The translations under genes were made by a program, and so were the position numbers. Shown in pieces: positions 992 to 32,800 of a stretch of DNA of 36,978 nt. The first letter of the stretch is position 1, and every line of letters begins with the position of its first letter. The notes below the pieces were generated by a model. That model had not been told where the DNA came from. It ran no database searches and was given only the letters and a program-made list of their open reading frames with translations. This DNA comes from Candidatus Omnitrophota bacterium (GTDB lineage Bacteria; Omnitrophota; Gorgyraeia; JAHJTE01): NCBI GenBank assembly GCA_018830005.1, contig JAHJTE010000003.1, positions 265,674 to 302,651 of the forward strand. The letters run 5' to 3'.

Positions 992-2155
992 CTAAAGTAC
1001 CTTACCTTGCCATAATTCACTCAAAAAGTTACCCCACGGTAATATCTCTATTTTACCATGAAGCCTCTTTTCCTTCTCATTACAAATAATAATGCTTCTT
1101 TTTGGAGAATGTTCTTCCATAAAAGCTGTTAGCCCGTTTAAATCCCTTTTGTCCAGGCGACCTGACCCTTTGATCTCTATGGCAATCTTTCCCCCTCCCA
1201 GCACTAAATCTACTTCCATACCTGACTTTGTTCTCCAGAAATTTATTTCAAATTCCCGCGAACAATATGCACGGTAAGCAACTATTTCCATAAGTAAAAA
1301 ATGTTCAAGCGCTTTCCCAAATTCCACGCCTCTCTCATTCTCCAGATGCCGCTTTGTCAAACAGCCGGCAACACCTACATCAAACAGGTAATATTTCGAG
1401 GCCTTAGTAATAACCTGTCGTGATTGCCTCTTTTTGAAAGGCTCAATCCTAATAGCCAACAACGTATCAATAAGAATCTGATAGTATTCTTTTACAGTCT
1501 TTGAATCTACCCCGCAATCACGAGCGATATTGTAATAGTTTGTAAGCTCACCATGTGAATAACCAAAGGCATCAATAAATCTTGAAAATGCAGGAATGTT
1601 TCGCGTTAACCCTTCGGCAAAAATTTCCTCTCTCAAATAATCCTGTACATATGCTTTCAAAGATTTCCTGCATTCGTTATCGTCTTGTAAATAGTGCACT
1701 GGTATCATTCCGTGATTTAAGATATGTAAGAGATTTGGGGCTTTAAGTTCAGCCGTAACCAGCGGAAACATTTCAAAACGCCATGCTCTTCCCCCTAAAA
1801 GATTAACGTGTCCTCTCCTTAATTTTCTAGCACTTGATCCACAAAGAATAAAACGTAATCCTTTGTTCTCGATCAACCAATGCACTTCATCAAGAATCTG
1901 TGGAATCTTCTGCACTTCATCAAGTACTATTGGATGCTTTATGTCACTCTTATCCTTTGCAAGTAGTCTTTCTCGTAATAGTGCTGGATTCTTAGATACT
2001 TCAATAAAAAAGTCTGTCTTTAAAAAATCATATATCAGACTATTTGGAAAATGTTTTCTCAAATAGGTAGTCTTGCCTACTTTTCTAGGCCCCCATAAAA
2101 ACGCGGATTGTCGCTTAGGAAGCCTTATATTCAGGATTCTCTCTATATTTCTCAT
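992..2155 (-). CDS. AAA+ ATPase, AAA_14 + DUF4143 type
   Basis: Walker A GPRKVGKT, Walker B IVLDEVQK, GRA motif, KxYxxDxG, and a C-terminal PD-(D/E)xK-like EVDLV...IAIEIK. 387 aa. Confidence 0.88.
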   Translation of the reverse strand: MRNIERILNIRLPKRQSAFLWGPRKVGKTTYLRKHFPNSLIYDFLKTDFFIEVSKNPALLRERLLAKDKSDIKHPIVLDEVQKIPQILDEVHWLIENKGLRFILCGSSARKLRRGHVNLLGGRAWRFEMFPLVTAELKAPNLLHILNHGMIPVHYLQDDNECRKSLKAYVQDYLREEIFAEGLTRNIPAFSRFIDAFGYSHGELTNYYNIARDCGVDSKTVKEYYQILIDTLLAIRIEPFKKRQSRQVITKASKYYLFDVGVAGCLTKRHLENERGVEFGKALEHFLLMEIVAYRAYCSREFEINFWRTKSGMEVDLVLGGGKIAIEIKGSGRLDKRDLNGLTAFMEEHSPKRSIIICNEKEKRLHGKIEILPWGNFLSELWQGKVL

Positions 2156-2162
2156 TTTGTAT

Positions 2163-2220
2163 TATACTCCATATTAGCCTTACTAATTTGGAGTATATTC
2201 CATTTTTGGAAAATAGTCAA
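2163..2220 (-). promoter_or_regulatory. Sigma-70 promoter of the ATPase gene overlapped by a 35-bp inverted repeat (probable operator)
   Basis: Minus strand TTGACT (2215-2220), 17 nt, TATACT (2192-2197). Inverted repeat TATACTCCA-t-ATTAG-cctta-CTAAT-t-TGGAGTATA at 2163-2197. Confidence 0.65.
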
Positions 2221-2315
2221 GTCTTTTCTTTTGCTCCTTTTGTAGAATTACGATGATCAAAACCTCTAGTCTCTACTTGTAATTTTGCATTCCAATTGCA
2301 AATATGCCATATAAT

Positions 2316-2441
2316 TTATCGCCTGGCAAGCCCTTGCTCTCCGGCTCCCGCAATCCACTTTCCTTTTAGCTCATCCATCTGGGCAATCTTTGACCAGATC
2401 TCAGAAGAGATATTTTGCAGCCTTTCTCTAAATTTACTCCT
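2316..2441 (-). pseudogene. Probable remnant of the N-terminus of a Fic-family gene
   Basis: Frame reads RSKFRERLQNISSEIWSKIAQMDELKGKWIAGAGEQGLARR-stop. This resembles, from memory, the N-terminus of a Fic/DOC subfamily (IWxKIxxIDELKGxWIxGA). No start codon (AGG where ATG might have been) and an early stop. Confidence 0.45.
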
Positions 2442-2511
2442 ATTCCCAGGAAAATGGTTATCTTATATTTTAACTATATAAGATTACAATTGTATGTCGA
2501 GTATTTTCTTG

Positions 2512-2564
2512 TTGACAAACGATAGAAATATGTTACACTTGTAACAGATATGTTACATAAGGAG
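2512..2564 (+). promoter_or_regulatory. Promoter/operator and RBS of the HTH-MNT/HEPN operon
   Basis: TTGACA (2512-2517), 16 nt, extended TGn-TACACT (2531-2539). Three TGTTACA half-sites at 2531-2537, 2540-2546 (inverted) and 2551-2557. SD AAGGAG at 2559-2564. Confidence 0.75.
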
Positions 2565-2569
2565 TAGGT

Positions 2570-3169
2570 ATGAAATTCCACATCCCATTATTAGATGTGC
2601 TAAACTCAAGGACAAAAGTAAAGATTATGAAGTTCTTATTAACCCATGAGGCCTCTATGAGTGAAAGGGAAATAGCCTCGATTTTAAAAGTCTCACATAT
2701 GAGTATAAACAGGACTATGAGAGAACTTGCGGATTTTAATTTCGTAAACTTTATCAACGTTGGAAAAGCACATCTATGGAAGATAAATCGTAAAAGTTAT
2801 GCTTTTAAAATCCTATCGGAATTAATTCAGGGGGTTTCAATTATCAAAGAACCTTTAGGACAACTAAAAATCACTCTCTTGCGAAATTTACCTAAAACCC
2901 TAGTTAAAAAAGTTGTTCTTTTTGGTTCGGTGGCAAAGGGATTAGAAAAACCAAATAGTGACATAGATCTATTTATTTTGGTTAAAGATAAACAAACTAA
3001 GATAAAACTTGAACCTGCAATTGAAAAGCTATCAAATTTATGTTTCGAAATATTCGGAAATAGATTATTCCCTTACATCCTTACAGACCAAGAACTAAAA
3101 CAGAAGGAAAAATTAAAACTTATCTCTGAAATTGAAAAGGGTATTCAATTATTCCCGAAAAGGAAATAA
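2570..3169 (+). CDS. Winged-HTH fused to minimal nucleotidyltransferase (MNT), putative antitoxin
   Basis: N-terminal HTH (MSEREIASILKVSHMSINRTMREL). C-terminal polB-type NTase motif VVLFGSVAKG...SDIDLFILV. Confidence 0.85.
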   Translation: MKFHIPLLDVLNSRTKVKIMKFLLTHEASMSEREIASILKVSHMSINRTMRELADFNFVNFINVGKAHLWKINRKSYAFKILSELIQGVSIIKEPLGQLKITLLRNLPKTLVKKVVLFGSVAKGLEKPNSDIDLFILVKDKQTKIKLEPAIEKLSNLCFEIFGNRLFPYILTDQELKQKEKLKLISEIEKGIQLFPKRK

Positions 3170-3175
3170 TAAATA

Positions 3176-3583
3176 ATGGTCTCTAAAGTAAAAACTAAAG
3201 ACGTTTCAAAATCGCTATATGTTAATTTTCTTAAACGTGCCGAAGAATGTTTTCATGCAGCACAAAGTTCTTCCTCTGTCCAAGAGTGGAATGCTGCAAC
3301 AATTAATGCTATTCACTGTTGCATTGCGGCTTGCGATGCTATGTGTGTATATTATTTAGGCAAGCGCTTTACCGGTGAAAAGCATCAGAATGCAGTTGAT
3401 CTTTTTAAGGTAGTCAAAAGTGGCGATGAAAACTTAAACACAAATGCAAATAGAATCCTAAGAATTCTTCGCATTAAAAATATGGCAGAATATGAAGAAA
3501 GGCTGGTTTATAGATCTGAAGCAGAGAAAGTGTTAAAAGACTCTCAAAGGTTGCTTGAATATGTTAAAAAAGAACTACCATAA
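3176..3583 (+). CDS. HEPN-domain protein, partner of the MNT gene
   Basis: 135 aa, all-helical. FLKRAEEC..A, WNAATINAIHCCI.ACDA and RIKNMAEY motifs. Starts 6 nt after the MNT stop. Confidence 0.8.
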   Translation: MVSKVKTKDVSKSLYVNFLKRAEECFHAAQSSSSVQEWNAATINAIHCCIAACDAMCVYYLGKRFTGEKHQNAVDLFKVVKSGDENLNTNANRILRILRIKNMAEYEERLVYRSEAEKVLKDSQRLLEYVKKELP

Positions 3584-3675
3584 GTTGTATTTTTAACTCT
3601 CCTTCTTTAAATCTTCTAGACGCTTAAAAACATTATCTATGTTGTATCCCCTTCGACTTTCCTATGCACCATTTT

Positions 3676-11800: not shown

Positions 11801-14800
11801 ACACCTAGGCGTTTATGAACATCAGGTTCATGAAGAGAACGTATTACTAAAGAAATTTCTGGAAAATCTTCTGCAATTACTTGAACTAAATTGGCAATAT
11901 TAGAAATAGGTATTGTTCTCTGATGAAAGCTATCTAAGGAGGTATTTAAAATAAAGTAATAATCTGAAGTGGCATCTGTTTTAGCTTTTATAATTTTATA
12001 TACTTCGGATAAACTATCCCTTGCAGACCCTGGTGTACTCGCAAACTTAGCATTTGTTTGTAAGATATTGGGTTTTCTGCTATTTTCTAACAAAAATAAA
12101 ACATCCTCTTTAGCGAATGATAAAGGCTCTCCACCGCCAATACATATCTCTTTGAACCTGGGATCATTTTCTGCAAATTCCAATAAGTCTCTATACATCT
12201 TCTCTTTTTGCTTCCAATTTAATTTTCTCTGTGGTTTGCAATAAACAAACAGGCAATGAGGACACCAGGTATTACATTCTCTAGTAACCTGAAATGTAAA
12301 CATGTGCTTTAGAAATGCCAAAGGGCCTACTAAATCAACTTTGGCGGAAAACCTTTTTACAACTTCTCTTCTTTCTAAATCTACGCCTTTGCCAGTGAGG
12401 CAGTAAAAATACTTTTCTCTCCTCATTAATGCCTTTAATCTTCTTGGGTAATCATTACTACCATCCTCAGTATTCTCATTATCTGCACTATACCCCGGCC
12501 AGTGCGCCTTACGAATTGGACCAAAGAAGATATCGGTTGTAGTGGGTGTTTCTTGAGAGTGGTGATGTCTTTTATTTTGTGGGTCTTCTGCATCTTCTTC
12601 GTCATTATCTTTTTCGGAATAAACTAATTTCGCATCTGTAGCCATTAAGATATGTCCATTAAATATATTGCAATCGTAATGGCCTTTTTCATCAAAGATA
12701 TATTTAATACTTTCGGGAATTTCAATTGACTTCTCAAACGTCCTGGTACTGATGAAGGTACCATTAACATAAACAAAGCTATCATCTTCTGCAAAAACAA
12801 CACACATAAGCTCTCTGTCCTCCATATTTCTTTCATTCATGTAATAAAGAAGTGTCCAGAGAAGCAGTGCCTTATCTCTGTGACTTCCAGTTACAAAGGC
12901 CAAGACCTCATCCGGCAACATAATCCTATCAAGGCTGCCAAATACAGACTTAAATCCTTGGATATTTCTGACAAATCTTATCGCATCATCTAAGCTGTAC
13001 ATAAATCTCGCATTATCTTTTGTGTGTGTTTCTTCTAAGGCCTTGGCTGCGTAAACTTCAGGGTATTTAACCTTAAGGCTTCTAAATGCATACAATGCAG
13101 CTTCATACTCAAAATATTCTTCGGCAAGATTAAATGCGTATTTTTGCAAAGTTTCTGCTGAATCAAAATCTTGAATATTGATTGGTGCGCCTCTTCTATC
13201 AATAAATCTTATCCCAGACAAATCTGGTATATTAAATTCTGCTCCAAAGAATTCGCTTAATCTTTTATAAAACTTAACTACTGTATCTTTGGACATAGTT
13301 GAAATGCCTAATACAGAATTAAAAATGCCGCTAAAGGAAACGAAACTGTCAGTACATGGAGCTGCAAATTCTCTATACCAATCTATATTCTCGCTTAATT
13401 CTTTAAACTTCTTCTTAGAATACCAATATAAATTAGAAAATACGTATCCTTCATCTATATCTATGAAGACCGCAAAATGTATTTGTGTGCCAAATATAAA
13501 TATTTTTTCAAATGGAACCTGAGTAAATATCGATATTAATGATAAAAATGCTGCATCTAATGTGGCAAATGATGCACATTTACCTTCTGCCTTATTATCA
13601 TGCCGTATCCTTCTATAAGCATGCATTAATTCAATAATTTCATTCTTCATGCGTGCCCTATAGCCCTGCCTATAGGCTGTTGTTGTACTGAATCCTCCGT
13701 AGCCTCCTTCATCAACAGAGAAAAACTGGTCTAATCTATCTATGATTTGCCCCACTACTTCATCACCTAAAGCGGCCTTTTTAAAATCAATAGTAGTCCA
13801 ACCCCACCTACATCCTTCAGGCCGGTCAGATGTTGAGAAAGTATTTACATAATAATGTTTTAAATGTCCTTCTAGACTTCTTAATGATTGCGCTGTACTC
13901 CTGCCTTTAGTCTTTCTTTTTATTATCTTCCAGGCCAGAGGCGACATCATATTAGCTAGCCAAGCTGAAAGCAATAGCTCAGGATGTGCAGCAATCTCAA
14001 AATAATCCCATGTAACTGCCCAAGATAATCTTTGCTTATAGATATCTGACATTAATACTTCTCCTAAACGCAGAATCTCATGTGATTCATATTCAAAAAA
14101 CAACTCAAATATCAAATGTCTATCCTGAACATTGTAATCCTCCAAAAGAATCTCAAAGGCCTTTTTTAGTATAGGCAATAATACTGGTTTGCTATCAATT
14201 ATTGATACTAAACTTGAAACTAAACATGGAAAATCCAACTCAATGATTCCAAACTTGCATTCCCTAATCTGCTGTAAATGGTATTCAAGATACGCCTTCA
14301 TAATCCTTGCCAACTCATTAGCATTTCCCTGCTTCGCCAACCTGTATAGCATCCCTCCTGACACCCCACCGTTTTGAGGAGAATTACCGCAGACTTGCTC
14401 AGAAAGTAATCTTTTCTTCAATTCTAAAGCTAGTTTATCTTTAATAGCTCCTCTAGTGGCATTCTCTTTTTTTATTTTCTTAATTGCTAACTGCAGCTCT
14501 TTTCTAAAAATAGCGACTTTTTTATTGTCTCCTCTAATCTTATCCGCTAGGGCACCTAAAGTATTTCCTTCTTTAAGAATATTAAACAATTCCTCATTTG
14601 AAAGAGTTAACCCTTTTTCTAAAATTATATCTTCTTCCCAAGACCACTGACCTCTCTTTTTAATCTCTCGTATCAAGATTTCATCTACTTCTAAAATAAT
14701 TATCCACTTTAAAAGAGTATCATAGTAAGGATGTAATTCTGAATCTCTCTTTCTTATCATCCCCTTGTTTACCTTTGTAATCTCAGAATCCTCAAGGTCT

Positions 14801-17800
14801 TTGCTAGATAGCTTGCCTTTATAAACATGCCCGGTATTCCCATCTAGAATTAACCAACTTCCTATCTTTACCTCTGCATTTGTTCTAGAAAATTTAACTG
14901 TGTTACTATGTATTTGTAAATTGATCCGTGTAAGATGAGGAATAATTTTTTGTGCACCACGCATTCGCACAACAATGTAGTCTGCAAATCCGCCTCCATA
15001 TGAAATTGCTCCTGAGATACGTCTTTCTATTGCCTCAGGAGTAATAGTTTGTAATCTCTCAAATTCCATAACATTAAATATTACAGCTATGCCTTTACGG
15101 CCTTTTGGATTAGTACAATCAGTAATAATCGGTCCGCTAACAATACCAGGCAAGACTATAATTCCGCTGGCTATTGGTTTTCTTTCAAGGTCTTTTCGCA
15201 GAACAGGAGATTCTAGATATGTTTTTGTCCACCATAGGTGTTCAAGACGCACTGAGGAGGGTACATCAAAATTAGAACAATCTTCATACTCTTCCTCTCT
15301 AAACCTACCTAAAGCATCCTCTTCGGATATAAGGCCTTCTTTCACAAAGTCCAATAAAATCCTTACCCTTGCAAGCGGGGTAGAAAATTTCTCGTTTCCT
15401 CTTGTTTGCAATATAAACAGTTTTCCATTTTGAATAGTAAATTCTATATCCTGAATCTCATAAAAATGCTTTTCAAGCAACAAGGCAAATTCCTCTAATT
15501 CAAGATATTGTTGAGGTAAATACTTTTGCAAAGCATCAAGTCCCTCTGGTCTATCCCATTTACATAATATGTTATCTACTATTTTTAACCTGCCTACGAC
15601 CTCTGAACCTTCTGCATTAAACTTAAAACTTCCGTAAATTCCTTTTTCTCCGTTTAGAGGATTCCTTGTAAAAATTACCCCACTGCCCGACTTTTCATCT
15701 CCTATATTACCAAAAACATAGGCCTGGATATTACATGCAGCGCCACAAACAAAATAAGAGGATTGTATAACCGACTTTACCGCTAGCATAAGCTGTCTTT
15801 TGGGGGTAGGGAATTTCTTACCTGTCTTTTGCTCAAAAAGTCTCTCTGCTTTTAAAACCATCTCTTTAAGCTTATCTAGAGAAATAAGTTTGGGTAGTAT
15901 GTCATACCTATCCATATAATAATTTTCCCGTAGCGAAGGTATCTCATCCACAATCTTATTTACCCCCTCATCAAACCCAGCATCATCTTGGCTGACACAT
16001 TCTGCAATATAAGACATAAAATATAACAAAAAGTCTAAATACGCCCTATGCATATCACCTATTTCTCTTCCGTAAGCATCCAATGTTATTCTGTGTAACC
16101 CTATCTTTGTATACGTTTTATATCTACCTGGCTCGCTTTCTTCGGCACCACTTCTAACAGAAAGGAAAAGCGGATTCTTCAAATCCCCAAATTTCTTTAC
16201 ATGCCCAAAAACCTTTTTCGTTCGCCTTTCTATTTCTGAAACACCTTGAAATATCAATTCACTCACTCCTTTTGGTAAGCTATTTCTATTTTCATCGTAT
16301 CTTCTGACAATCTTATTTGGTATGGTAAATCCCGGTGGCACTGGCAAATCTAATCTTGCCATTTCTGCCAAGTTTGCACCCTTTCCTCCCAAGGCTGATC
16401 TCATGCTTGCCCTACCACATGCTTTACCCCCGCCAAAATAATATAGGGCTCCTGAAGTCTTTTTTCTACTGGATTCTCGCCGCAAATGCGCCACACGGAC
16501 TGGACCAAAGAACATATCAGCTGCAGTAGGTGCTTCTGGGAAGTGATGATGTCTTTTAATTTGAGGACTTTCTACATCTTCATGTGTTGATCTAGCAAGA
16601 TGGGAGTTATTGGAAATAAGTCCAAGCTTACGTGTAATACTCTTATAATTACGGCTAATATTACTAGGAGAACAGTTAAACTGCCTGGCTATCTCTTCTT
16701 GATTCATATTGATTATCCCTGACCTGTGTAAGGCAGCTAGGATAAACATCTGTTTATTCCTTTCAGAGGCATTTATAGGCTTTAATAGTTCTTTTAGCCT
16801 TGTTTCTGCTTCTTGTTGGGTTAATTCAGGTAGTTGTTCTTCTGGGATTAGTTTATCTAATAAAGTCTGTGGCCTTCTTCCACGTTCATCTTTCTCGTTT
16901 AGGGATCTATCTAAAGAACTAGTATTTTCTCGCTTTTCCCTCCTTAGCTCAGATCTTGCCTTATCATCTATAGAGCCCATGAATCTTTTATAGGCATAGG
17001 CACCAATTGTCTTATCCCATTTCTCTGGATCAAAGCGTGCCACAATACCCGGGATAGCCTTAAGGCAGGCAGAGAGACGCTGATCAGAATCTAGGTTGAA
17101 GTATTTTAATCTATACTCTTTGGATATTTTCTTTGCAAGCCATTCCAGAGAATACATAAGTGCCTGGTAAGCTGCTAGGTTTCCTTTCTGAACCTCTTTG
17201 GCTAATTTAACCTGTTGTTCTAGACTCATATCTTCGCTTTTTACCTTTGTCTTTCCATTTAAAATATCCTTGACTACCTTAGGATTATCATAATGCTGTG
17301 TGAATTTCTGATATACACAGCTTTCACAACACGGCTTCATGCCTTGGCTCTTAACGAAATCAAGCCAGCTGCCGTAGATTCTACGGACTGCCTCTACCAT
17401 GCCGCCATAACCAGCCTCTTGCCATTGACTGCTGCTTCTTACGTCTTTGATCTCTGTAGGGGGATTCCTAAAGGCCTCAGAGAGGGTTTGTTCGGTCCAT
17501 TTGGGAATACGGCCTTTTTTCTCAATCGGCTGTATGTCTTGGCTCTTAACGAAATCAAGCCAGCTGCCGTAGATTCTAAAGGTCACCTTTACCATGCCCC
17601 TATAACCAGCCTCTTGCCATTGACTGCTGCTTCTTACGTCTTTGATCTCTGTAGGGGGATTCCTAAAGGCCTCAGAGAGGGTTTGTTCGGTCCATTCCTT
17701 TCGCTCAATTGGCTTTATACCTTGACTTTCAAGGAACTTATGCCAGCTGCCGTAGATTCTAATAGCTACCTTTATTATGCCCCTATAACCAGCATCTTCC

Positions 17801-20800
17801 CATTGACTGCTGCTTCTTACGTCTTTGATCTCTGTAGGGGGATTCCTAAAGGCTTCAGAGAGGATTTGTCTGGTCCATTTGACAGGAGGGCCTTTTCTTT
17901 TATTTTCTGAAGATCTTTCTTCTTTCCGATAATGCGCCTTACGAATTGAACCAAAGAACATATCAGCTGTACTAGGATCTTCTGGAAAGTACTGGCGACT
18001 ATTTCCTTTTACTTTGCCGGATGTTTTCTTCGGGCCGACTGATAAAGAATTATTATTTTTAGAATTCTGTATAAAGTAATTTAATAAGGCACGCCACCGC
18101 TCTATATCTAATCTACCTACCAAAGATCTAGGTAATGGTTTTTTCGCGTAATGACTGATCACGCACTTGCTAACTTGGGAATATTGAATACAAACTGAGG
18201 ACTTCTCTAGGTTAAAATGTACACCGATTTCCCTGTAGCTCACTTCTTTTCCACAGAGTCGTCCCATAATACGAATTTTGAAGATTAATCTGTCTCTACC
18301 AGGATTCCCGCCACGTATTTTTACGGGTCTTAATAATTCATCTAAAATATATTCAAGTTCTTCCTCACACATAGCAAGAGAAGGTTGTTCTAGGCTTTCG
18401 TCTAAAGGACTCTCTCTTCTTCTGGAAGCCTTCCTCCATAAATCAATTCTTATCTGTCCAAATTTTTTATAAGCAAGGCTCTTAAGATTTGAGCCGTTAG
18501 GTCTATCAGGATTGTAATTCGTAATTATTTTTGGAATTGCTTTATCAAAAGCTCCAAGAATATCCTTACAGCTAAATGTCCATTGCCACTTATATGCTAA
18601 TGTTTCTGCGTAGAAGTAAAGCAATTGCCTTAAGGCATCTTGCGCTTGTCCATCGCCCTCATGAGCTGCTCTAGCCAGGGCATTCTGCTCTTCTAGTTTT
18701 AATTTATGAATCGTTATCTTACTGCCTGGTTTAAGGATAGCCTCTGCCAGACGGGCTGCTTGTTTTCTAGAACGTCTTCTTTCCCTTTCCTCTTCTTTCC
18801 AAACTGACAAGACTTGTTCTGCCAGCCTTTCTGACCGATGCTTATTTTCTTTCTTGCCTTTTAAGTTATCTAATTCATGCTTTAGTATTTCCTTTAAAAG
18901 CCCTACTCTCTTAAATTTAACAAGAAGCAATATCAAGGTAAGGGGTATATAAATACCACTTTTGACCTTGCCCTTTGACTTTTTAATTGTTACTGCTGCT
19001 AAAAATATCTTTAATGACTTATACCATACAGATGGCATCTCTCTAGGGTCTTTTTTAGGATCAGGGAGCACGATAAATACTCCTCTTTTCTCCAACGCCT
19101 TTAGAATCTCTTGATAAGGCTCTATTTGAACGAAAAAGTTGCTGTAGAGATTGCGCACGCCAACTACACGCCCATCATCCCAGGCTGTTTCTAGCTCCTC
19201 ATAAGTCCTGTCTTCATACTCCTTATACATCTGGCCGTCTGCTTTAAGCACACCCATGCCGCAGGGTCGGGGGACTGAATGGCCATTGGAAGCTTTATAA
19301 ATTTTGATTATTTCTAATTGTCTCAATAAGAGCCAATGTTGGCAGATATCATATCCATTGCCTATGCTTTGTCTTAAATCGCCAACTTCCCCTTCAATCG
19401 TTGATTGCAATTTTTCTAAGGCCTTTATACCTTTGCTTCTCCTTCCCCTTACAGCTAAAACTTCATCCTCAAATAAAGCAAGTATATTATTCCGTTCTTC
19501 CTTATTAAGCCTACTAAGAATTAACAAGTTATTATTAAGTTTATTATGAATAAGTCCTCCTTTATTATTGTCTTTCCGGATTATGCCCCCCACGACTACC
19601 ACATCTCTTAGAGTAGCCACTCTCCATAAGTGCCAATTAAAACCACTTCCCTTTACCTCTACCTTGAGTTCTTGGCCTATTAATTCAGGGGGTAGCGAAA
19701 TATGTACCGAACTATTATTTGGAACTGGCACTGCTATGCCGGCACCTCTTCGGCGGCCACCACTATAAACAATCCTTACCAGTGCCTCTTCCGGAGGTTT
19801 CCTTTCAAAAGGCAATTGCATCCAATTAGCCCACTTATCCCTCACTCTCAACCTTTCTTTAAAATCAGCTATTCTCTGGCTGATTTGCATATCTAAACAT
19901 TTAATAACCTTACCTTTTTTGACTTCAACATAATGCCTACCTATGGACGTGCCTCTACCATTAAAAACATTAACAGCACAACATCCTTCGCTAATATCAT
20001 TTTTATCAATATCCACAAACACCTCTGCACCAGCATGTTCTTTATAATCAGTTATTTGCAGGTTTTTAGATATCCAAATGTATCCTGCTACGCCAACTAA
20101 GATATATAGCCCCAACGGCGGATCTCCCTTCATGTTAGACTTAAAATAGCTATCCCATTCCCGCGCTATTTCTTTCTTGTTATCTCGCCGCTTTTTATCT
20201 TTTTCGATAGTCTTCTTTGCTTGTGCATTGCCGCATAATTTGATAAGCAGCTTTTCTTTCACAAAGTTAAACCACAACCTGATAGTCTCTCCTGTAAATT
20301 GATCTCCATTTTCTCCTTTTACGCCTAATCCAAAAAGGTAAGCAGCGATTTCCCCGTATGAATAAACTACATCGTCTTCTAAGCCAAGTTTCATGTTAAA
20401 GGCCATAACACGATAAGGAAATTCAATAGATAAATCTGCTAAACATTCTCTTGCCTTGGCTACAATTGAATCATTTCCTCTATCTAGCATACTTTCTAAT
20501 TGGTTATGTCGGGCTAGCGAAGCTCTTTCTACTTCAAACTTAGACAACGAACAAAAAGCTCTTGATTGCCACCGGTCTGTTTTCTTAAAGCTCGCCTCAG
20601 CATTAAAGTCTAGAGAATATTGCTCCTTTAATCCGTTCAAAATCAAACCTCGTAAAGCTGGAACAGCATATGAGCTAAAATTAAAACCGGCATCAAAAGC
20701 ATATCTTTCATCTGTTATTATGTATTGCAAAAAATATCTCCCCATCTGAAGTATATCTTCCATAGTAGTAAACTTTAGAAACGCTTTAATGGCAGGAGAC

Positions 20801-23800
20801 CTTTTGACTATCCAACGAATAAGTGGATCATTTTCTTCGCAAAACTGTGCTGAGGCCGCTTTATCACCTCTTCTTACCTTTCTAATTAACATCCTCCTTC
20901 TCAGCTCATTAGTATCAATATTTGCTATTATGGTTGCCAAGTTAGGGTATTTCTTAAAAACCTCTTTAATTGAATAGCTCGAAAGTCTCAATAATATCCT
21001 TTCGTTTCGCTCAAAGGCTAACCTAATAGTTATTGCCAAAAGAATATCTTCCTTTAGAAAAGTCCTGAGCCTTTGCGCTTCTACTAACCCCTTGCTATCC
21101 TTGACGCTTAATTTGTATACTGTCGTATTAAAATTTGCGCTTCTTAAGTCCTTTAGCTTGACTGCTAATACAGGCAGGCCTGATAATTTATCAAACCAAA
21201 GCGCCAAAGGTTCATTCTTTATGCCGATATTGCGGTGAAAATTGCAATCTACGCCATCAACGCGGTGCTGTCTTCTTAAATGCCCTCTTGAATTAGTGTA
21301 TGCGCCTTCGGATCGGATATACTTTGCGCCGTATTTATTAAACATCTCTTTTATCTCATCGGGACTCGGAAAGCCTTTCTTGGTGCTATTTAGAACATTC
21401 CCATGTTCATCAAAAGTAACAGCATACTCAAATACATCTATATCTGGCCGCAATACTAAATAGTCTTTAAGTTTCTGGCAATATAATAGCCAAAATTCTC
21501 CATTTACTTTTTCAAACCAAGCAACCATTCTATCGCCTTCTTCAAATTTATCTCTATCCAAGATATAAAAAACGAAATTAAACCATATTCCGACCATTCC
21601 TTTTCTTTCCTTAGCCTTTAAGTTCATATGCCTGACTACAGAATGGTCATCAAGCTCTCTATAGACTTCGGTCTTTCTATCGCCAATACATATTAACTTA
21701 TCTTCTTCTGTAATGTTTCTCTGCAAATATGTAAGCCTATGGCTTTCTAGACTTGTTTCAAATTTATCTATATTGCTTACGGCAATGAACTCTAAGGGAG
21801 CTGTATCTACATTAAATACCAGAATTAAATCATCGACGGTACCAGTTTTTCTCAATTGCTCATTGCAAGGAAAATTAAATCTGCCTTGGTTATCAGTAGA
21901 TGTTATTACAACATTTTTAGTTAATTTTATGTTCTTAGGGAACTGAGCCCTATATACGGAAATTAAGTTTCCATCTATATCAAATATCTCGCTGTAAATT
22001 TCTCCTTGCCTAAGGTAATCCTGAAACAGACCCTTAAGTTCACTGAATTGTATTGTTTGGTTCTTCCATTTAACATTTCCTTCTCTATCTAGGCTAAATC
22101 TTTCATTGACGCATAGATTACCTAAGATACGCGCATAGCCCTTTAGATATTTAGTTGCGATGTTTCCTTTCCCCCTTAAATCCTCAACCGCTTTTAAACA
22201 TTTATCGATATACTCAGAGTCTTCAGAGCAGTCTTCAAGTATTAAAGTTTTGCGAATCAATTTTTCTCCAGCTGAATTCTTAGTAATCAATATAGCTGTC
22301 TTGGCATGCGCAAATAGTACGGATGGACTTTTGCCTAAGACTCTTAGTAGTCTACCATGTCTATTTACAGTCACGCCTAAGACATATAAACCGCTATGGC
22401 CTTCATCATCCATAAGCCTATTTATCATTTCGTCTCTTGATTCAGGATATTTTTTGAACTTGTTACCTGCTCTTAATGCAGGAAGCTTTCCTAATTTTTT
22501 CCCTGTTTCTGCATCAATAAAGACTAACTTGTCGTCCTCGGCCAATTCAATCAGATCCTCTCTTGTTAATCCTGCTCTTAAAGATCGAGGCTGGACATCT
22601 GCCAGCTGTCTGTAAAATCTTGGTTTTAAGCCTAACAATATCTTCCTGGCAAACCTATCTATCTCATAATTGCTGCCGTCAAGGAATGATTTTAATATTG
22701 GTATGAATTCCTTCATTCGGTCGTCTCTTTGGGCTTGAATTAGGGCGTTTTGGATAAGGTGTTTGAGGGGTGGGTTTGCTTTTTGGGTATGCTGGGTGTC
22801 TCCCAGACAGGTTAGGCGCTTGAGGGAAGCTATGTGGTCTGACTGCCATGCCTCTTGGACCTCTTTAGCCAGGGCTTCTGATTCGGTTTTATCTTCTTTT
22901 GCGCCTTGTAGGTGGCTTAATTCGTAGTTTATGACTTTCTCGGATACCGAGAGTCCTAATAAGGTTACGGGTATATAGGCGCCTGCTTTGACTTTGCCCT
23001 TTGCCTTGTGAATTGTAACGGCATTTAAGAATATATCCTGGGTAAAATACCAGATGTTTGGTTCTGTTGTGCCTAATATAAAGTAGAAATTCTCTTGTTC
23101 TAGTGTCCTAGCTATCTCAGGGTCTATCCGGTCTTTTACCTTTTTGGGAAGGTCTTTGTATCTAACTACATGTCCTCCGGCCCATGCTTTCCCTAGCTCA
23201 TAATAAGTCCTGTCTTCATACTCCTTATACATCTGGCCGTTGGCTTTGAGTACCCCCATGGCGCAAGGTTCCAGAATAGTAGCGGTATCCATATCCTTAA
23301 ATCTCAAACTAGCAAAATTGGAACCCTTCTCCCTGGCCATATTAATCTGTATACACGCAGCAAGCAGTCGTAATTCTGGAATATAATACGTACGATTACT
23401 CTGATAACTATCAAAGTCGTCCTCTAATCTGCCTAAGGTTAAGATTTTATTGGCAATTACTTTTAGAATTATCTTGAATAAATTATAACTGTTGCCATTT
23501 AGGCAGCCATTATCAACTAAGGCGAAGGCACGGCTTAAATCATATTTTATTTCACTTCTTAAGCTTTCTATTCCTGCTGGAATTGTTCCCTTCTTTCTTC
23601 TAATCTCTTTCTTAATTAAGGCTAATCTATTCTCTAGCCTATGAATGGTTCCGTAATCTAATACATTGGCTAAATTAAATGTAAATTCTACCTCCCCGAC
23701 TATTTTTAGAGCTCGTTCGAATTCAGTAGGATCTGCTTTTCTTAATATAGCTTCAATCTGTTTCAAATGTAATTCTATGTCTCCTAATAAACCTTGTTTC

Positions 23801-26800: not shown

Positions 26801-29800
26801 TCTAAATTCTTGGCTCTAATAATACTGCCATCGTCAAGCTCTTTAAATACTTCGCTCCATTCAATGCCTTCATCTCTCCAGATTAGATTATCTTGCTCGC
26901 CTAAATTCTTCTGTAGATAAACTGCCGCACGCCTTCTGCCAGATACGCTTAAATTACTTATCTCAATAGTCTCTTTCGGGATCAATCCTTCACTAAAAAC
27001 TAGGATTAGACCATTAATAATGTGTGTAAAATAGTACTTTCTTTTAGCGCCAAAGATGAATTGCCCGTTATTGCCAGTAGAGATAATTGCACTATTCTCG
27101 CTTAATTTGATATCTTCCGGAAATTTATAAAGGTATGTTGCAATTATTGATCCTTGCATATCAAATATCTCATTATAAACAAACTCACTTTCAAGGCATG
27201 CAGTTAGTATTTCTTCAAGTTCTCCAGCTGATATTGTTCTAGCTTTACCTCTAATGTTGCCTTTTTTATCTATGTTAAGTCTTTCTCTGTAAAAGATATT
27301 CCTTAGAATAATTGGATAACCGCTCAAGCTTTTAAGCTTAATCTCTATTTGTTTTGGCAAATTATTTATTGCCGTCGCACATAGTTTAATATATGCCTGG
27401 TCCTCAATTATCGATGCGCTACGAATCAACTTCGTACTATCAAAACCTCTGGTTATCATTAGGCTTGTCCTTGCCGAAGCAAAGTAAACACTCGAATTGT
27501 AATCCCAAAGCCGAATCTTTCCATCTTCATCTGTAATCACGCCGTTTATTAAAAGATTATTGTAACCTTTCTCATCCATAAGTTCATCTATCTTATCCTC
27601 TATCATCTTTTTAGGCCGCTTGAAACCACCAGGGAGAGATATCTCTCCAACTTCTGCACCGGTTAGAGTATCAATAAAGATTATATGATCATTTCTTAGC
27701 CTGCGCTTGTATTCTTCAAGTTCTTCTTCTGTTGGCAGCAGCCTTTCAGGAATATCCTCTATAAAGTCGGGGAATGCCTTACTTAATTCTCTTAACTTAG
27801 CCCTCACAAACCTATCTATCTGGTAATTACTACCACCCAGGTAGAGTTTTAAGATTTTGATAAGTTCTTTCATCTTCACAGTATCTGTCTCTGCTACAGC
27901 TAGGGCATTTCGGATAAGGCGTTTGAGGGAAGGGTTTGCTTTTTGAGTGTGTTTGGTATCAGCTAGGCAGGTTAATCGCTTAAGGTTAACTCCTCCAGCC
28001 AGCATGCCGGCGATTAGCGTGTTGTGTGCTACGAAGTCCTGAGTGGTTCGACAGAACTCACCATAAACGAGCGAAGCGAGTCGAAGGATGAGTTCTGAGT
28101 TCTGGGCTAAAAGCGCAAGACCCAAAGCGCAAAGCGCAACAGCTAACATTAAAAACATTGTGCCAAAAAGCATGGAACTACGCTTTCTCTCAGCTTGGGT
28201 GTTATTGCGCAAATACGCATCAAATTGGCCTGAAGCGGACATGGCTTTAACATCACTCCAGAAATAAACCCGAATTTGCTCATCTTTAAAATCACAATTA
28301 GAACCATTTCTTAACCTTGTAGAGCCGTCAAAATAGAAGGAATATTTAAGGTTGAACTCTTCCCTATCTAAATATTCTCTTTGATCTTTAGAGATTGTTT
28401 GTGCTAACAACTCTAGATCTGCCCTCTTCACAATACCTTTATTCTGAAATGCAAGATCACGTATACAGTAGAGCAATGAATCTGGCCAAGGTCGGCTTAT
28501 ATCAAGATAAAATGGGATGTGAATTTCGCAAATATCTTTCTCTGAAGAGAATATTCTATTAAAGGCTTTTGAAATATGTTTAAATGTTGTAAGTAAACAA
28601 TATTCTATAGCTCCGCCAATAAGGACAAAATTATTCTGATGACTCTTCTTGAACACTTTGTCTAACCATCTTAAATCCAGCCACTTTAGTAGTAGCAATT
28701 TATTAACATCTGTAAATTCAAATTGTTTTCCCAGCGCTTCTGCGCTATCGCTAATATCATGAACCTGAACTAAATGTAATGGATGCATGGCTGTCCTTAT
28801 ATGATCATAAGCCTTATTAGATATTAATATCCCACCCAGGCCGGCGGTTAATGGGCTGTCTGTCCCGAGTGGCTGTAAGGAGTCTAGAGATGGTAGGTCC
28901 TGAGTCGCTTTTTGGCTCTGTATCTCTATTAATTTTTTATTTGTAATCCGTTGTGAAGGTGTTTGTAAATCTTCAGAGTAACTATAAAATCCAAAACAGT
29001 ACACTGCGCTACTATTTTTTGTATCAAAGGTGATGTCGGTAAAGGTGGTACATAAAGAAGGAAATAACAATCTTATATTTTTATAGCCCTTACTGGCTAA
29101 ATGATTAATTATTCTTCCTCGAAATGCAAATAATTGCCTATTGTGTTCTAATTGGAAATCATCGAATAATGCCAAGCCGCCAGCATGAACTTCTATTTCC
29201 TCGCCGTTGCCCATATCCTCATATGCAATATCTATCAATCTAATTGCCTCGTCTAATTCTACCCTCCTTTTATGGATAGGATATGTCCTCTTATTCTTAT
29301 GATTATGAATAATAACGAACACACATGGCCCTACGGAGAACCTAAAAGGTTCTTGATCGTCTATTAAGTATTTATCCGTGGCTAACGGCATTGTAACATC
29401 TGCAATTGCATCATAAGTCCTCCCTAAGCCAGTCCCACCTATACCAACAAACTCTCTGTCCTTTTCTTTATCAAGCATAATTTCAGTATTATCAACCACT
29501 AAGATTACTTTTTGAGAGTCATCAAGACTTCTATGAGTACAAACAGCAATGCAGGTAAAGACCAATAGCTCTAAAGCAATTATAATCAGAGCAGTATGAA
29601 AACTCCCTGGGCCGGCTAAATTCAAAGTCTGCGCCTGGCCTGATGCGCTAGAGAATAAATCGACAATCCCTATAGTTAACCAGAAAGACAATATCAACCC
29701 ATGTATTAAGTCATTATCGAGTTTTTTAATTTGGGTAATCGCTACTATTCTAAACACCTTATTAATTACTAAAGACTTATTACCAAGCAGCATTTGTATA

Positions 29801-32800
29801 TAATCTCTTAACTCCTTCCTTGTCTCATTATTACCTTTACCTAAAATCTCTGAGAGAAATGCCTTACAGTATCTATAAGCAAGGGCTTGAAAACCTCCAT
29901 CAATAGCTAAGGCTAAAAGTATTGCCTTTAAACGATGCAGACTATTTATATCTTTAAGCATAGCCAAGGCCTGATCATAGTTTTGCCTCTTGGCTTCTCT
30001 GGTAAAAGGAAGACTCGGCATAACTCTATTATTGGTTGACTTTCTCTCATATATTGCTAAGTCCTCAACAATCTCAGGATAAATTGATACTCTTCTTAAA
30101 TTTTTAAAGTGAATCTTATCCAGGCAAGGCATGTATATGACTAATATTGATTCCTGGCCTAAGCCGGACACAGCATCTACCTTATTCAATAAATTATCTT
30201 GACGCTCTGACCTATCATAATAATAGAATATTAGTCTGAATCCGCTAATATCAAAACTCATATCCGTAAGGTTTGCCAAATCCAATATCCGTACCTCTTC
30301 TTTTGGCGAAAATTTTGGCAAGACGGTTTTAACAACACCTTTGTTAAGAATGCTTCGGATATGATTAGGGGGTACGTCGTAAGTTTCTAATAAATTACGT
30401 GGTAGCTGTCGAGGTGAAATCTTCTGGCGATTATCATTCATCGCCGCTAGAAAAACAACCCCAGTGCTACTTGTGTCCCAGTTAGGCAGGATATCAAATA
30501 CAAGATTCCAGATAGTAGGCACTAAGATAAGACCTACAGCAATTATCAAAAACAGGCTGCCGAGAGTGATGAAACCCCTGTTGCCATCTTTATGTTTTGA
30601 CTTATTTTTTAAAGGTGGTATTATTTCTTCATAGCTGTAATGTCGGACATTGGGATGACCTTTTCTACCGGTCCAACCAACGCCTATTTCACATGGGTAT
30701 CCTTTATATATACTGCTGCGATAATCACTGCCAATGGTATATGTCTTCTGGTCATTAGGATGTTCTTCGTTCCACTTCTCTATAAGAGCCAGAAGATGAA
30801 TTCTGTCTCTGGTTCTGTACAATTTATGGTCAATTTCCAGACCGTCAAGCCCCCTCTTAAATAATTCAAATATTTTTTCATCGCTAGCATCTTCCTTCTT
30901 CTTGCCGAAAGCTCCCGGATGCGCATAAATAACAACACCACCAAATCTATGGGCCCAATCTATTACTTCTTGGACAGATGAATAACGCTTAGGTTGTGTC
31001 TGAATTAAATCTTGCATATTCTCTTTAAATTCTTGCAAATCAGGAAAATAAACTAGCATATCTCTCATAGAATCTTGATCCTTGGTTCTGATTTCAAGGC
31101 CTGGTATAATTTCCAGACTCGTGCCTTTTACTGCTTTTAGAGCTTCTCTAAAAGCAGTAAAACTAAATCCGTCCTTGAGATGGTCAACAATAGCGATGGC
31201 TTTTAATCCCTTTTTCAAGGCTTGGCTAACAATATCTATAGGGCTCAAATCACCGTTGTCAAAGCTTGAGTGTATATGCAAATCTACTTCATTTACTGAA
31301 GCAATGCGTTTTTCCTCTACCCCAGATACAAGTAGCCGGTCCATGCTTGTAGAATTCGTATCTGTCTTTTCATCAAAGACGCCGGCAAATGACTGCCACT
31401 TTCCTGTTCTCAGATAAATTGCATACTCAGTTAAGCGGATCAAGAGATCCTTTAGCAGGCCTTCAAGTTCATTTAATTTAAGGTCTACCTCTCCTTCACG
31501 CACATGCGTATTCTTACTAATAAAGCTCTTTAATTGCTTAAGCGAACTCTTTAGGTCAGTAACTATTTCAGAAACAGATGGTTTTTGCTTTGCTACCTTA
31601 TTTATTTTCTTGCTTATTTTATGTTTTCTGATTAGTTTGAAGCTCTGCCTTAAGGCTCCTATCCAATCATATTCTTTAGGAAAGATACGTTTCTTTTTAA
31701 TAAAAGTCTCTTTTCTTAAGTCTTGGATATGCTGATTTGCCCCATCTATATATTTATAGATTTTTTTCAATACAAGAATCGTCTTTTCTGACTCAGGTAT
31801 CTCACCAAATATATCTTCAAATATTTTCTTAGCTCGGTACTCTGGATTATGCCTGCGTTTCTCTAAAATTGGTTGACGTATTCCACATACAACTATTGCA
31901 ATACATGCTAACCCAAATGCTATGAGTAATATATTTTCAAAAATAGATAAAGGGAAAAAATTAAACATCACACCCGAAATTATAACAGCGGTAACAAAAC
32001 ATATGCTGAAGTGTGTTGAAATTAATCTGCCAAAATTCTTTAGGAATAAACGTATTGAAAATCGTTGGCCTGCTTTTTTATCAGATGCAGAGAAAGTATC
32101 ATATACTGCAAATAGCAGGTTAAGAATAGCCCAAGCGCCTAGATAAGGAGAGATATGTTGCAAAAATCCTTTCATAGCAGGACTTAGCGCCAGCGGCAAG
32201 CTGTCTAATAATCTGCTTAATAATAAATCTACGTCCTTAAGACTAGAGAGAATAGATAGGGTAGGCGTAAGGTAAGAGATGAAAGATAAGGGAACAAAAC
32301 TATGAACTATGGTATTGACTAGATAAAGTGGCGGTGCCTGCGGCTGCAGTATGTCTGTAAGTATTTCCTGCGTATGGCCAGTCTCAAAGCTAAATAACCA
32401 CGCCACTAAAACCGTACACAATATTAATGCCAATTTAGCAAGGCTAATAAGCTGCTTGGGATTTGTAGTTTGCGTTTCTTTAGAAGCAGGTAAAGGCCTG
32501 GGGTTGAACTTGTCCCTGTCCAAAGGAAGCCCTGAGAAAACCTTAATAAGGCAATCAATGTGAGAACCGCAAAAATATGGTGCTTTTCTGTCATCTCTTG
32601 CACTGCTTAATCCTAAGACCTCAAAGTGGGCGCTGCTAATTTGGTAGATCCACTGCATTAATATACTCTTCTCTTCTTCTGAGAGTCTGCTAAGATTATC
32701 ATAAGCTTCAATGATATGAGGTGTTTCCCTACTGAGTACCTCCCGAACATTGCCTATGCCTTGCGCAATTCCATCTTTCCATCCATATCTTTTAATCCAA

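Follow-up and report, generated by a model that had tools for sequence, protein, structure and literature searches.

In CdiA and Rhs proteins, the short motifs VENN and PxxxxDPxGL, respectively, demarcate variable modules, and the VENN-encoding sequence is where homology between orphan modules sets in and where it ends (PMC3150448). Processing at module boundaries has also been linked to these two motifs (PMC9424206). Arrest peptides, such as SecM (RAGP) and the RAPP-type ApdA and ApdP, depend on critical Arg, Ala and Pro/Gly residues near their C-terminal end and need no extra factors (PMC10951233, PMC7897499). Multi-enzyme giant proteins of Omnitrophota have been reported to be sequence-unique proteins that contain many unrelated Pfam domains, including radical SAM, and term searches of the two preprints (10.64898/2026.06.07.730766, 10.1101/2023.11.21.568195) gave no mention of a junction or linker motif; the second of them states that the cleavage points of these giants are unknown. 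Here, we analyzed a stretch of 36,978 nucleotides (nt) from a Candidatus Omnitrophota bacterium (hereafter the window), in which a giant multi-module open reading frame (ORF) contains three copies of a short linker motif, motif D.

On the basis of sequence evidence, motif D is a real module-junction element. It recurs at module boundaries and is present in relatives between different modules; its copies are homogenized within genomes with sharp edges; its peptide and the rare codons of its 3' half are conserved between genomes; and homology between related loci breaks at the motif. Our interpretation, in which we place somewhat less than even confidence, is that motif D serves as a recombination joint, much as VENN does in CdiA: an in-frame junction cassette, the peptide of which probably signals processing or pausing. 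It is likewise plausible, without being the better bet, that the motif is one member of a small set of conserved junction elements in a lineage-specific family of Omnitrophota giant genes. Since the term searches of the two preprints gave no such motif, the motif family appears to be undescribed. It could help explain how giant genes are built or processed, and bears on the wider question of how ORFs with 10,000 to more than 100,000 codons are assembled, expressed and used in bacteria.

Motif D between the modules of the window giant

All three copies of motif D, which read ..E.P...D[MI]FFG[PS][IV]R[KV]AH, lie in the frame of the single giant ORF on the minus strand (aa, amino acids):

5827-36846, minus strand: multi-module giant ORF of 10339 aa, counted from its first GTG, with the frame open to 36978
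17932-17991, minus strand: motif D copy 1, aa 6286-6305, YFPEDPSTADMFFGSIRKAH (DNA patch 17928-18027)
16486-16557, minus strand: motif D copy 2, aa 6764-6787, KRHHHFPEAPTAADMFFGPVRVAH (DNA patch 16482-16581)
12502-12573, minus strand: motif D copy 3, aa 8092-8115, KRHHHSQETPTTTDIFFGPIRKAH (DNA patch 12498-12597)
12490-12573, minus strand: motif D copy 3 with its WPGY extension (WPGY at 12490-12501), aa 8092-8119, KRHHHSQETPTTTDIFFGPIRKAHWPGY

A preliminary description of this DNA, made from the sequence alone, had placed the three copies at exactly these positions, and the DNA identities that it gave were also reproduced exactly (30/32 nt between 17933-17964 and 12503-12534, and 20/20 nt between 17950-17969 and 16504-16523). 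The HH prefix that it assigned to all copies is found in copies 2 and 3 only, copy 1 reading RQY at this place. The WPGY after copy 3 is part of the family-wide motif described below, and WPG is not found in the other two window copies. Chance recurrence of the core, D[MI]FFG..R.AH, is excluded: it is expected 5e-7 times per giant by composition and occurred in none of 2000 shuffles. A profile built from the copies gave exactly three matches in the six frames of the window.

The modules next to the copies are as follows, in the order of translation:

17995-18753, minus strand: sigma-70-like module 1, aa 6032-6284, immediately preceding copy 1 (weak TIGR02937 match)
17263-17901, minus strand: triple HNH_repeat-like (homing-endonuclease-associated) repeat of ~61 aa, downstream of copy 1 (PF18780, E 2.8e-5, just below the cut-off)
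16624-17160, minus strand: sigma-70-family module 2, aa 6563-6741, upstream of copy 2 (TIGR02937, 48.7 bits; cut-off 42.9)
14797-16446, minus strand: PPDK-like module (TIGR01828, 257.9 bits, profile positions 4-509 of 865; nucleotide-binding and swivel part only)
12670-13560, minus strand: domain without an assigned family, upstream of copy 3
11926-12291, minus strand: radical SAM core, ~70 residues past copy 3 (PF04055, 27.8 bits, below the cut-off)

Profile matches agreed with the triple repeat, PPDK and radical SAM modules that had been named as following copies 1, 2 and 3. The PPDK-like match begins 14 residues past copy 2, at profile position 4, which corresponds to the N-terminus of stand-alone PPDKs. 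This module has no C-terminal PEP/pyruvate domain and reads GGGFADY (aa ~7280) at the place of the phospho-histidine motif, where PPDKs have G-G-x-T-S-H; it may not be a working dikinase. The best NCBIfam match of the radical SAM module was YydG-like and far below the cut-off. No Pfam, NCBIfam or PDB match was found for the domain at 12670-13560, a single-sequence AF2 model of aa 7690-8095 was unusable (pLDDT 39.9), and PDB sequence searches with motif D and two domains of no assigned family were uninformative. It should be noted that the triple repeat (17343-17829), with a DNA identity of 85-93%, fragments the source run in its Logan assembly, leaving short contigs whose depth is uneven, and that its copy number is taken from the assembly of the metagenome-assembled genome (MAG).

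The 81-aa windows around the copies have polar fractions at percentiles 0.93-1.00 within the giant, and the core forms a small hydrophobic island in them. These very polar surroundings, together with the positions of the modules, place motif D in linkers, as the preliminary description had it, and the linkers are probably disordered. The hydrophobic core comprises only 4-5 residues (mean KD -0.2 to 0.4) with polar flanks. An export signal, which had been suggested, is therefore unsupported: the motif is internal, its hydrophobic core is this short, and no other protein carrying it was found. Neither a terminal position nor a membrane-spanning hydrophobic stretch, as in Sec/Tat, sortase or exosortase signals, is seen in motif D.

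Searches outside the giants gave little. A protein homology search with aa 6250-6830 had no match, the three-copy alignment had too few words in common with any of 5.8 billion protein clusters to yield a candidate, and the sole match of an exhaustive profile search against 1.84 billion representatives, a six-fold repeat protein with SFFGSVRSACH, was judged spurious. Stand-alone proteins with the motif at a terminus, for which a profile search had been proposed, did not turn up in the protein databases. Strict and relaxed degenerate DNA patterns had no match in 185,579 species-representative genomes, and the strict pattern had none in JGI metagenomes. The relaxed family pattern did match metagenomes, and among the matches listed all were due to chance, mostly in GC-rich contigs (including L140), as were two viral matches. 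Short and diverged forms of the motif would slip past these protein and DNA searches. No other carrier of a duplicated module or of the PPDK-like module was found in the genome contigs searched.

The motif family in syntenic giants

The window giant and its relatives are syntenic and lie upstream of a PilZ-PilZ-PilZ-GH94 cluster. Orthologs of the PilZ protein encoded just downstream of the window giant are 57-73% identical to it, and other giants occupy the same place in those contigs. Five related Omnitrophota contigs were compared: the giant has 18282 aa in L081, 10268 aa in L082 and at least 9215 aa in L083, its frame is open over the entire 9.8 kb examined in L084, and its last 981 aa are present in L085. 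Over the ~3300 C-terminal residues compared in each relative, nearly all modules are unlike those of the window giant and include Tpt1/KptA; nucleotidyltransferase, EamA, LysM and YkuD; and fn3, subtilase and alginate export domains. Three blocks are held in common. Aa 7763-8059 of the window giant and aa 1-325 of L082 correspond to the domain without an assigned family, the only block that the last ~3300 residues of the window giant have in common with the L082 stretch examined; aa 6516-6770 of the window giant and aa 1518-1770 of L081 correspond to a sigma-like module; and the third block surrounds a second junction motif, NGGVSG[GA].L. That syntenic giants have hardly any modules in common over their last ~3300 residues implies very fast module turnover at a conserved locus.

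All five contigs carry a diverged motif D between modules, SEFG..RVA[HN]WPG[YN], often after HH[HY]. The consensus of the family is an island of ~25-30 residues, (HH[HY]).P...[AD].[FE]F[GS]..R[VK]A[HN][WYL][PR]G[YN]. Its copies in the relatives are as follows:

L081: FPNPMASEFSSHRVANWPGPEG, GPDPMACEFGPHRVANWPGYNS and QHHHQPNIWESELGPTDGNRFGRWAFWPGSNS (P.PMA.EF..HRVANWPG twice and QHHHQPN..RFGRWAFWPG)
L082: RDEPQRADGSEFGLGRVAHYRHN and RDEPQRADGSEFGLDRVAHWPGNY (pattern RDEPQRADGSEFGL[GD]RVAH[YW])
L083: QHHYFPSAADSLLGNLPWQRRHWPGYHN and RIQVANWPGYNS (QHHYFP..RRHWPGY and VANWPGY)
L084: three copies
L085: ADMLFGPGHVANWSGD (also given as ADMLFGPGHVANWSG)

The HHH-type motif of L081, QHHHQPNIWESELGPTDGNRFGRWAFWPGSNS, stands directly after a sigma-like module that is homologous to module 2 of the window. 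Absence of the motif from homologous giants and from their boundaries, which the preliminary description had considered, is not what was observed: it was present in L081-L085 and always lay between modules. It is also no passive spacer, as had been argued, being kept in relatives and constrained at both the peptide and the codon level.

Comparison between genomes further revealed that homology breaks at the motif. The sigma-like block of the window giant (aa 6516-6770) and its L081 counterpart (1518-1770) are homologous upstream, up to the motif, and unrelated downstream. Conversely, L082 2209-2438 and L085 455-678 are homologous from the motif on, over a module with HP[HY]WRE.GWKW, and unrelated upstream.

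With a hydrophobic and aromatic island in charged, polar flanks and His residues (HH[HY], A[HN]) conserved in several genomes, motif D could be imagined as a short linear motif for binding, at which a chaperone or a partner domain docks or at which metal is bound by a His-rich site (HHH...AH). Such a role seems improbable, since copy 1 and many copies of the relatives lack the HHH prefix, His alternates with Asn, no partner is identifiable and the nucleotide-level signals described below would be unexplained.

Proteolysis deserves more attention. If motif D were purely a processing site, the giant would be a polyprotein cut by an embedded or separately encoded protease, and the similarity of the DNA would be a by-product of recent duplication. 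The motif indeed lies in exposed polar linkers just upstream of equivalents of full-length enzymes, its peptide is kept across genomes while synonymous sites vary in the 5' half, the L083 giant itself contains a subtilase (Peptidase_S8), and post-translational cleavage of Omnitrophota giants is put forward in one preprint (10.1101/2023.11.21.568195). A related sigma-like module also exists as a stand-alone ORF: on the contig with the closest PilZ protein (73%), L207:717-1376 is a separate 219-aa ORF without the motif at its end, and the ORF upstream of it ends early. This arrangement reflects either fission of a giant or errors in a single short MAG contig. However, no protease family was found in the window giant by Pfam or NCBIfam, the motif is present at only 3 of more than 15 boundaries and fits no known cleavage signal, and neither the 3'-half rare codons shared between genomes nor the homogenization within genomes would be accounted for. 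We thus regard an exclusively proteolytic role as unlikely, though it retains appreciable weight.

Conservation at the DNA and codon level

Within a genome, the motif copies form DNA patches that have sharp edges and random identity outside, with 58/61 nt identical between copies b and c of L082 and a patch of ~55 nt between copies b and c of L081. Window copies 2 and 3 are ~80% identical over ~95 nt and random beyond, and the identity of copy 1 with either of them is mosaic. At identical motif residues, the window copies use the same codon in 11/12, 10/12 and 17/21 cases (about 5.5, 5.5 and 10 expected), and the codons kept include ones that are rare in the window giant (TTC 23%, CGT 9% and GCG 11%). 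This pattern indicates concerted evolution of the patches at the DNA level.

The modules beside them behave differently. Sigma-like module 1 is only 23-27% identical to aa 6523-6781 (module 2), so that the two are ancient paralogs, and their synonymous sites are random (the same codon at 22 of 55 identical residues, 20.8 expected). These values bear on the idea that motif D has no function of its own and is a relic of module duplication, its copies being similar through chance conversion. Although the copies are most alike within a genome and some of them are linked with duplicated sigma-like modules, the motif is near-identical next to a duplicated module that is saturated at synonymous sites, and its core persists between unrelated modules in six contigs whose PilZ orthologs have diverged to 57-73%. 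The relic explanation is already disfavored and appears quite improbable.

Between genomes, the two halves of the motif differ. The 5' half (..SEFG../..MFFG..) is conserved as a peptide only, the same codon being used at 41 of its 106 identical residues (46.8 expected). The 3' half (R-V/K-A-H/N-W-P-G) has the same codon at 123 of 216 identical residues, with 68.2 expected. Ala is encoded by GCG in 10 of 11 cases (1.8 expected, P 8e-8) and Arg by CGY in 8 of 10 (1.7 expected, P 2e-5). These P values, drawn from a small number of non-independent copies, are indicative only. Enrichment is likewise seen for Val GTG, Pro CCG and Gly GGG. When codon rarity was judged by the usage of the gene itself, rather than by tRNA supply, the rarest of the 10333 seven-codon windows of the giant was RVAHLRR in the 3' half of copy 2, and copies 3 and 1 ranked 52 and 169. 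Several other top rare-codon windows fall on other conserved junction patches, and GC content at third codon positions is 0.40 in the patches as a group and 0.32 elsewhere. The homogenized patches, the rare codons shared across genomes and the break of homology at the motif, DNA-level signals which the preliminary description had missed, point to a role as recombination joint and/or to a codon-dependent role.

A codon-dependent role could be that of a translational pause or arrest element, in which the nascent peptide of about 25-30 residues and the rare codons CGY-GTG-GCG-MAY-TGG-CCG-GGG slow the ribosome at boundaries, so that the finished module folds or is targeted first. Codon conservation between genomes is located exactly in the 3' half, the three copies occupy the rare-codon ranks given above, the motif has the length of the exit tunnel, and the local mRNA is unstructured. 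Moreover, no extra machinery would be needed, consistent with the motif being found in no other proteins. On the other hand, the RAPP/RAGP arrest consensus is not present (PMC10951233, PMC7897499), WPG is missing from two of the three window copies, codon rarity was derived from the usage of the gene rather than from tRNA supply, and homogenized patches of 60-95 nt would be unexplained. We therefore consider a pause or arrest element, as the explanation of the motif, distinctly unlikely. Slightly less probable again is a self-acting separation or pause device, in which the ..FG..R[VK]A[HN]WPG peptide and its codons pause translation or break the chain between modules; if this were true, one ORF of 30-55 kb would yield separately folded or separate proteins, a bacterial counterpart of 2A/StopGo or arrest-peptide logic. 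Several further ideas were discarded as the residues do not fit, namely Ni-assisted cleavage (which needs S/T-X-H-Z), 2A NPGP, an intein HN junction, signal-peptidase AXA and a Shine-Dalgarno-like pause site.

The GC-rich conserved nucleotide core in AT-rich genes might also suggest an element that acts as nucleic acid, for instance a structured RNA, a promoter or terminator inside the gene, a site of frameshifting or a mobile mini-element inserted in frame, of the kind of the Rickettsia palindromic elements. Nevertheless, the mRNA near the copies shows no stronger folding than shuffled sequence (z +1.8, +2.1 and -0.2), no Rfam match and no promoter- or terminator-like site was found at the copies, and no slippery heptamer was seen on reading the sequence. 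In addition, the core occurred only in-frame in giants, and not outside their reading frame in any of the loci examined. An element of this kind is very improbable.

Motif D is accompanied by other patches of a similar nature in the window giant:

14347-14376, minus strand: second junction motif, NGGVSGGML, with a helical stretch of ~40 aa
11053-11082, minus strand: twin of the second junction motif (26/28 nt identical)
27884-27985 and 22724-22825: further patch pair at the starts of duplicated modules
35662-35828 and 32329-32495: further patch pair at the starts of duplicated modules
23164-23269 and 19162-19267: further patch pair at the starts of duplicated modules

NGGVSGGML closes the PPDK-like module, on its C-terminal side, and the radical SAM module; NGGVS is also found at aa 9697, and the second junction motif occurs three times in the L083 giant (GGVSGAQL..WLKQG). 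The peptides of the further patches are LKRLTCL.DT.HTQKANP, the hydrophobic FSFE..HTQ.ILTD.LQPQAPP and PC.MGVLKA.GQMYKEYEDRTY. Their DNA identity is 75-82%, compared with 30-45% protein identity for the module bodies, and some of them lie on rare-codon clusters.

A proposed junction cassette and its comparison with known systems

If motif D is a junction cassette, the following mechanism can be proposed. The motif patch of 60-95 nt is the sole DNA homology between otherwise unrelated junctions, always in the same frame. Because it is their only common in-frame homology, gene conversion and unequal crossing-over between copies would homogenize the patches, and exchange at the patches would allow modules to be gained, lost or swapped with the frame of the giant intact. 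The peptide, together with the codons of the 3' half, would be kept by selection for a function at the boundary, most likely as a site of processing (cleavage) or of translational pausing. We infer that recombination at the patches may have produced the module differences between giants and that the peptide may be cleaved or may make the ribosome pause. In-frame recombination at junction patches is thus a candidate mechanism for the fast module turnover between syntenic giants. The junction cassette competes mainly with the readings as a pure processing site and as a pause element, and the three are not mutually exclusive.

Several points weigh against the cassette, beside the small number of non-independent copies behind the codon statistics. 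First, the codons preferred between genomes end in G (GCG, GTG, CCG and GGG) and not in C; GC-biased conversion alone is thus no explanation, and what actually constrains these codons may be a function at the level of codons or RNA. Second, no recombinant form or joint was found in four DNA runs, which are assembled contigs that drop rare variants. Third, the identical tracts in the window giant are 20-32 nt long, the lower limit for RecA-type exchange. Fourth, the motif marks some boundaries only, its three copies being clustered in aa 6286-8115 of a protein with more than 15 modules. Finally, the comparison covered the last ~3300 residues of each relative, and the individual junctions compared may not be orthologous.

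The frame of the window giant runs for 10383 codons without a stop to base 36978, the end of contig JBDRIX010000012.1; as there is no stop between the listed GTG and the contig end (region 36847-36978), the window giant is truncated at its N-terminus and exceeds 10339 aa. The protein is strongly modular, with many old internal duplications. Recognizable domains are PHP, at least six sigma-70-like modules, the HNH_repeat-like triplet, the PPDK-like module and radical SAM, and two LOG/TIGR00730 domains are located at the C-terminal end. At least six sigma-70-like or HTH modules in one polypeptide, one of them above the TIGR02937 cut-off, are unusual for any protein; examples, all encoded on the minus strand, are as follows:

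aa 14-312, minus strand: sigma-70-like/HTH module
aa 842-1136, minus strand: sigma-70-like/HTH module
aa 4100-4200, minus strand: sigma-70-like/HTH module
aa 5310-5853, minus strand: sigma-70-like/HTH module
aa 6032-6284, minus strand: sigma-70-like/HTH module
aa 6563-6741, minus strand: sigma-70-like/HTH module
aa 8714-9255, minus strand: sigma-70-like/HTH module

The window contig belongs to a groundwater MAG, and the same strain is present in several groundwater metagenomes, free of variants at the level of assembled contigs. In a groundwater metatranscriptome, a few short contigs matched various parts of the gene exactly; one of these (17934-18155) covers motif D copy 1, although DNA carry-over is possible. 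The genes downstream of the giant encode PilZ proteins, and for the GH94 gene nearby, identities of 79-62% were found with genes in many MAGs of Candidatus Omnitrophota. At 992-3600, between GH94 and the PilZ genes, lie a HEPN/nucleotidyltransferase pair and a gene for an AAA_14/DUF4143 ATPase; they are not present at this place in L081 or L082 and are probably a small insertion.

In practice, motif D offers a guide for splitting giants into units for structure prediction, and a candidate processing or pause site that lends itself to small reporter constructs.

Compared with the systems introduced above, the window giant resembles the multi-enzyme giants of Omnitrophota in phylum, groundwater habitat and tiled multi-domain architecture. 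Motif D differs from the Rickettsia palindromic elements in that it is neither structured nor found outside the frame of the giants. With arrest peptides it has in common the tunnel length and the Arg, Ala and Pro-Gly residues near the end; unlike them, its core is R-[VK]-A-[HN]-[WYL]-[PR]-G rather than R-A-P-P or R-A-G-P, and it is repeated inside a giant ORF instead of being placed in a small ORF upstream of Sec/YidC genes. As with the cleavage sites of viral and eukaryotic polyproteins, the motif recurs in exposed linkers at the boundaries between functional units, whereas it is restricted to a subset of boundaries, and cleavage sites do not typically show conserved codons or concerted evolution of their DNA. 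No protease family was recognized in the window giant, and Peptidase_S8 is present in the L083 giant. The CdiA VENN and Rhs PxxxxDPxGL motifs differ from motif D in several respects: the sequences are unrelated, neither VENN nor PxxxxDPxGL occurs in the motif sequences and no DUF638 or Rhs Pfam match was obtained; several motif D copies in one ORF join enzyme and DNA-binding-like modules, instead of one copy preceding a lone toxin at the C-terminus; neither immunity genes nor orphan cassettes were seen; and the host belongs to Omnitrophota. What motif D shares with them is a short conserved peptide which, together with its encoding DNA, sharply demarcates exchangeable modules in very large proteins, and at which the homology between related loci stops abruptly.

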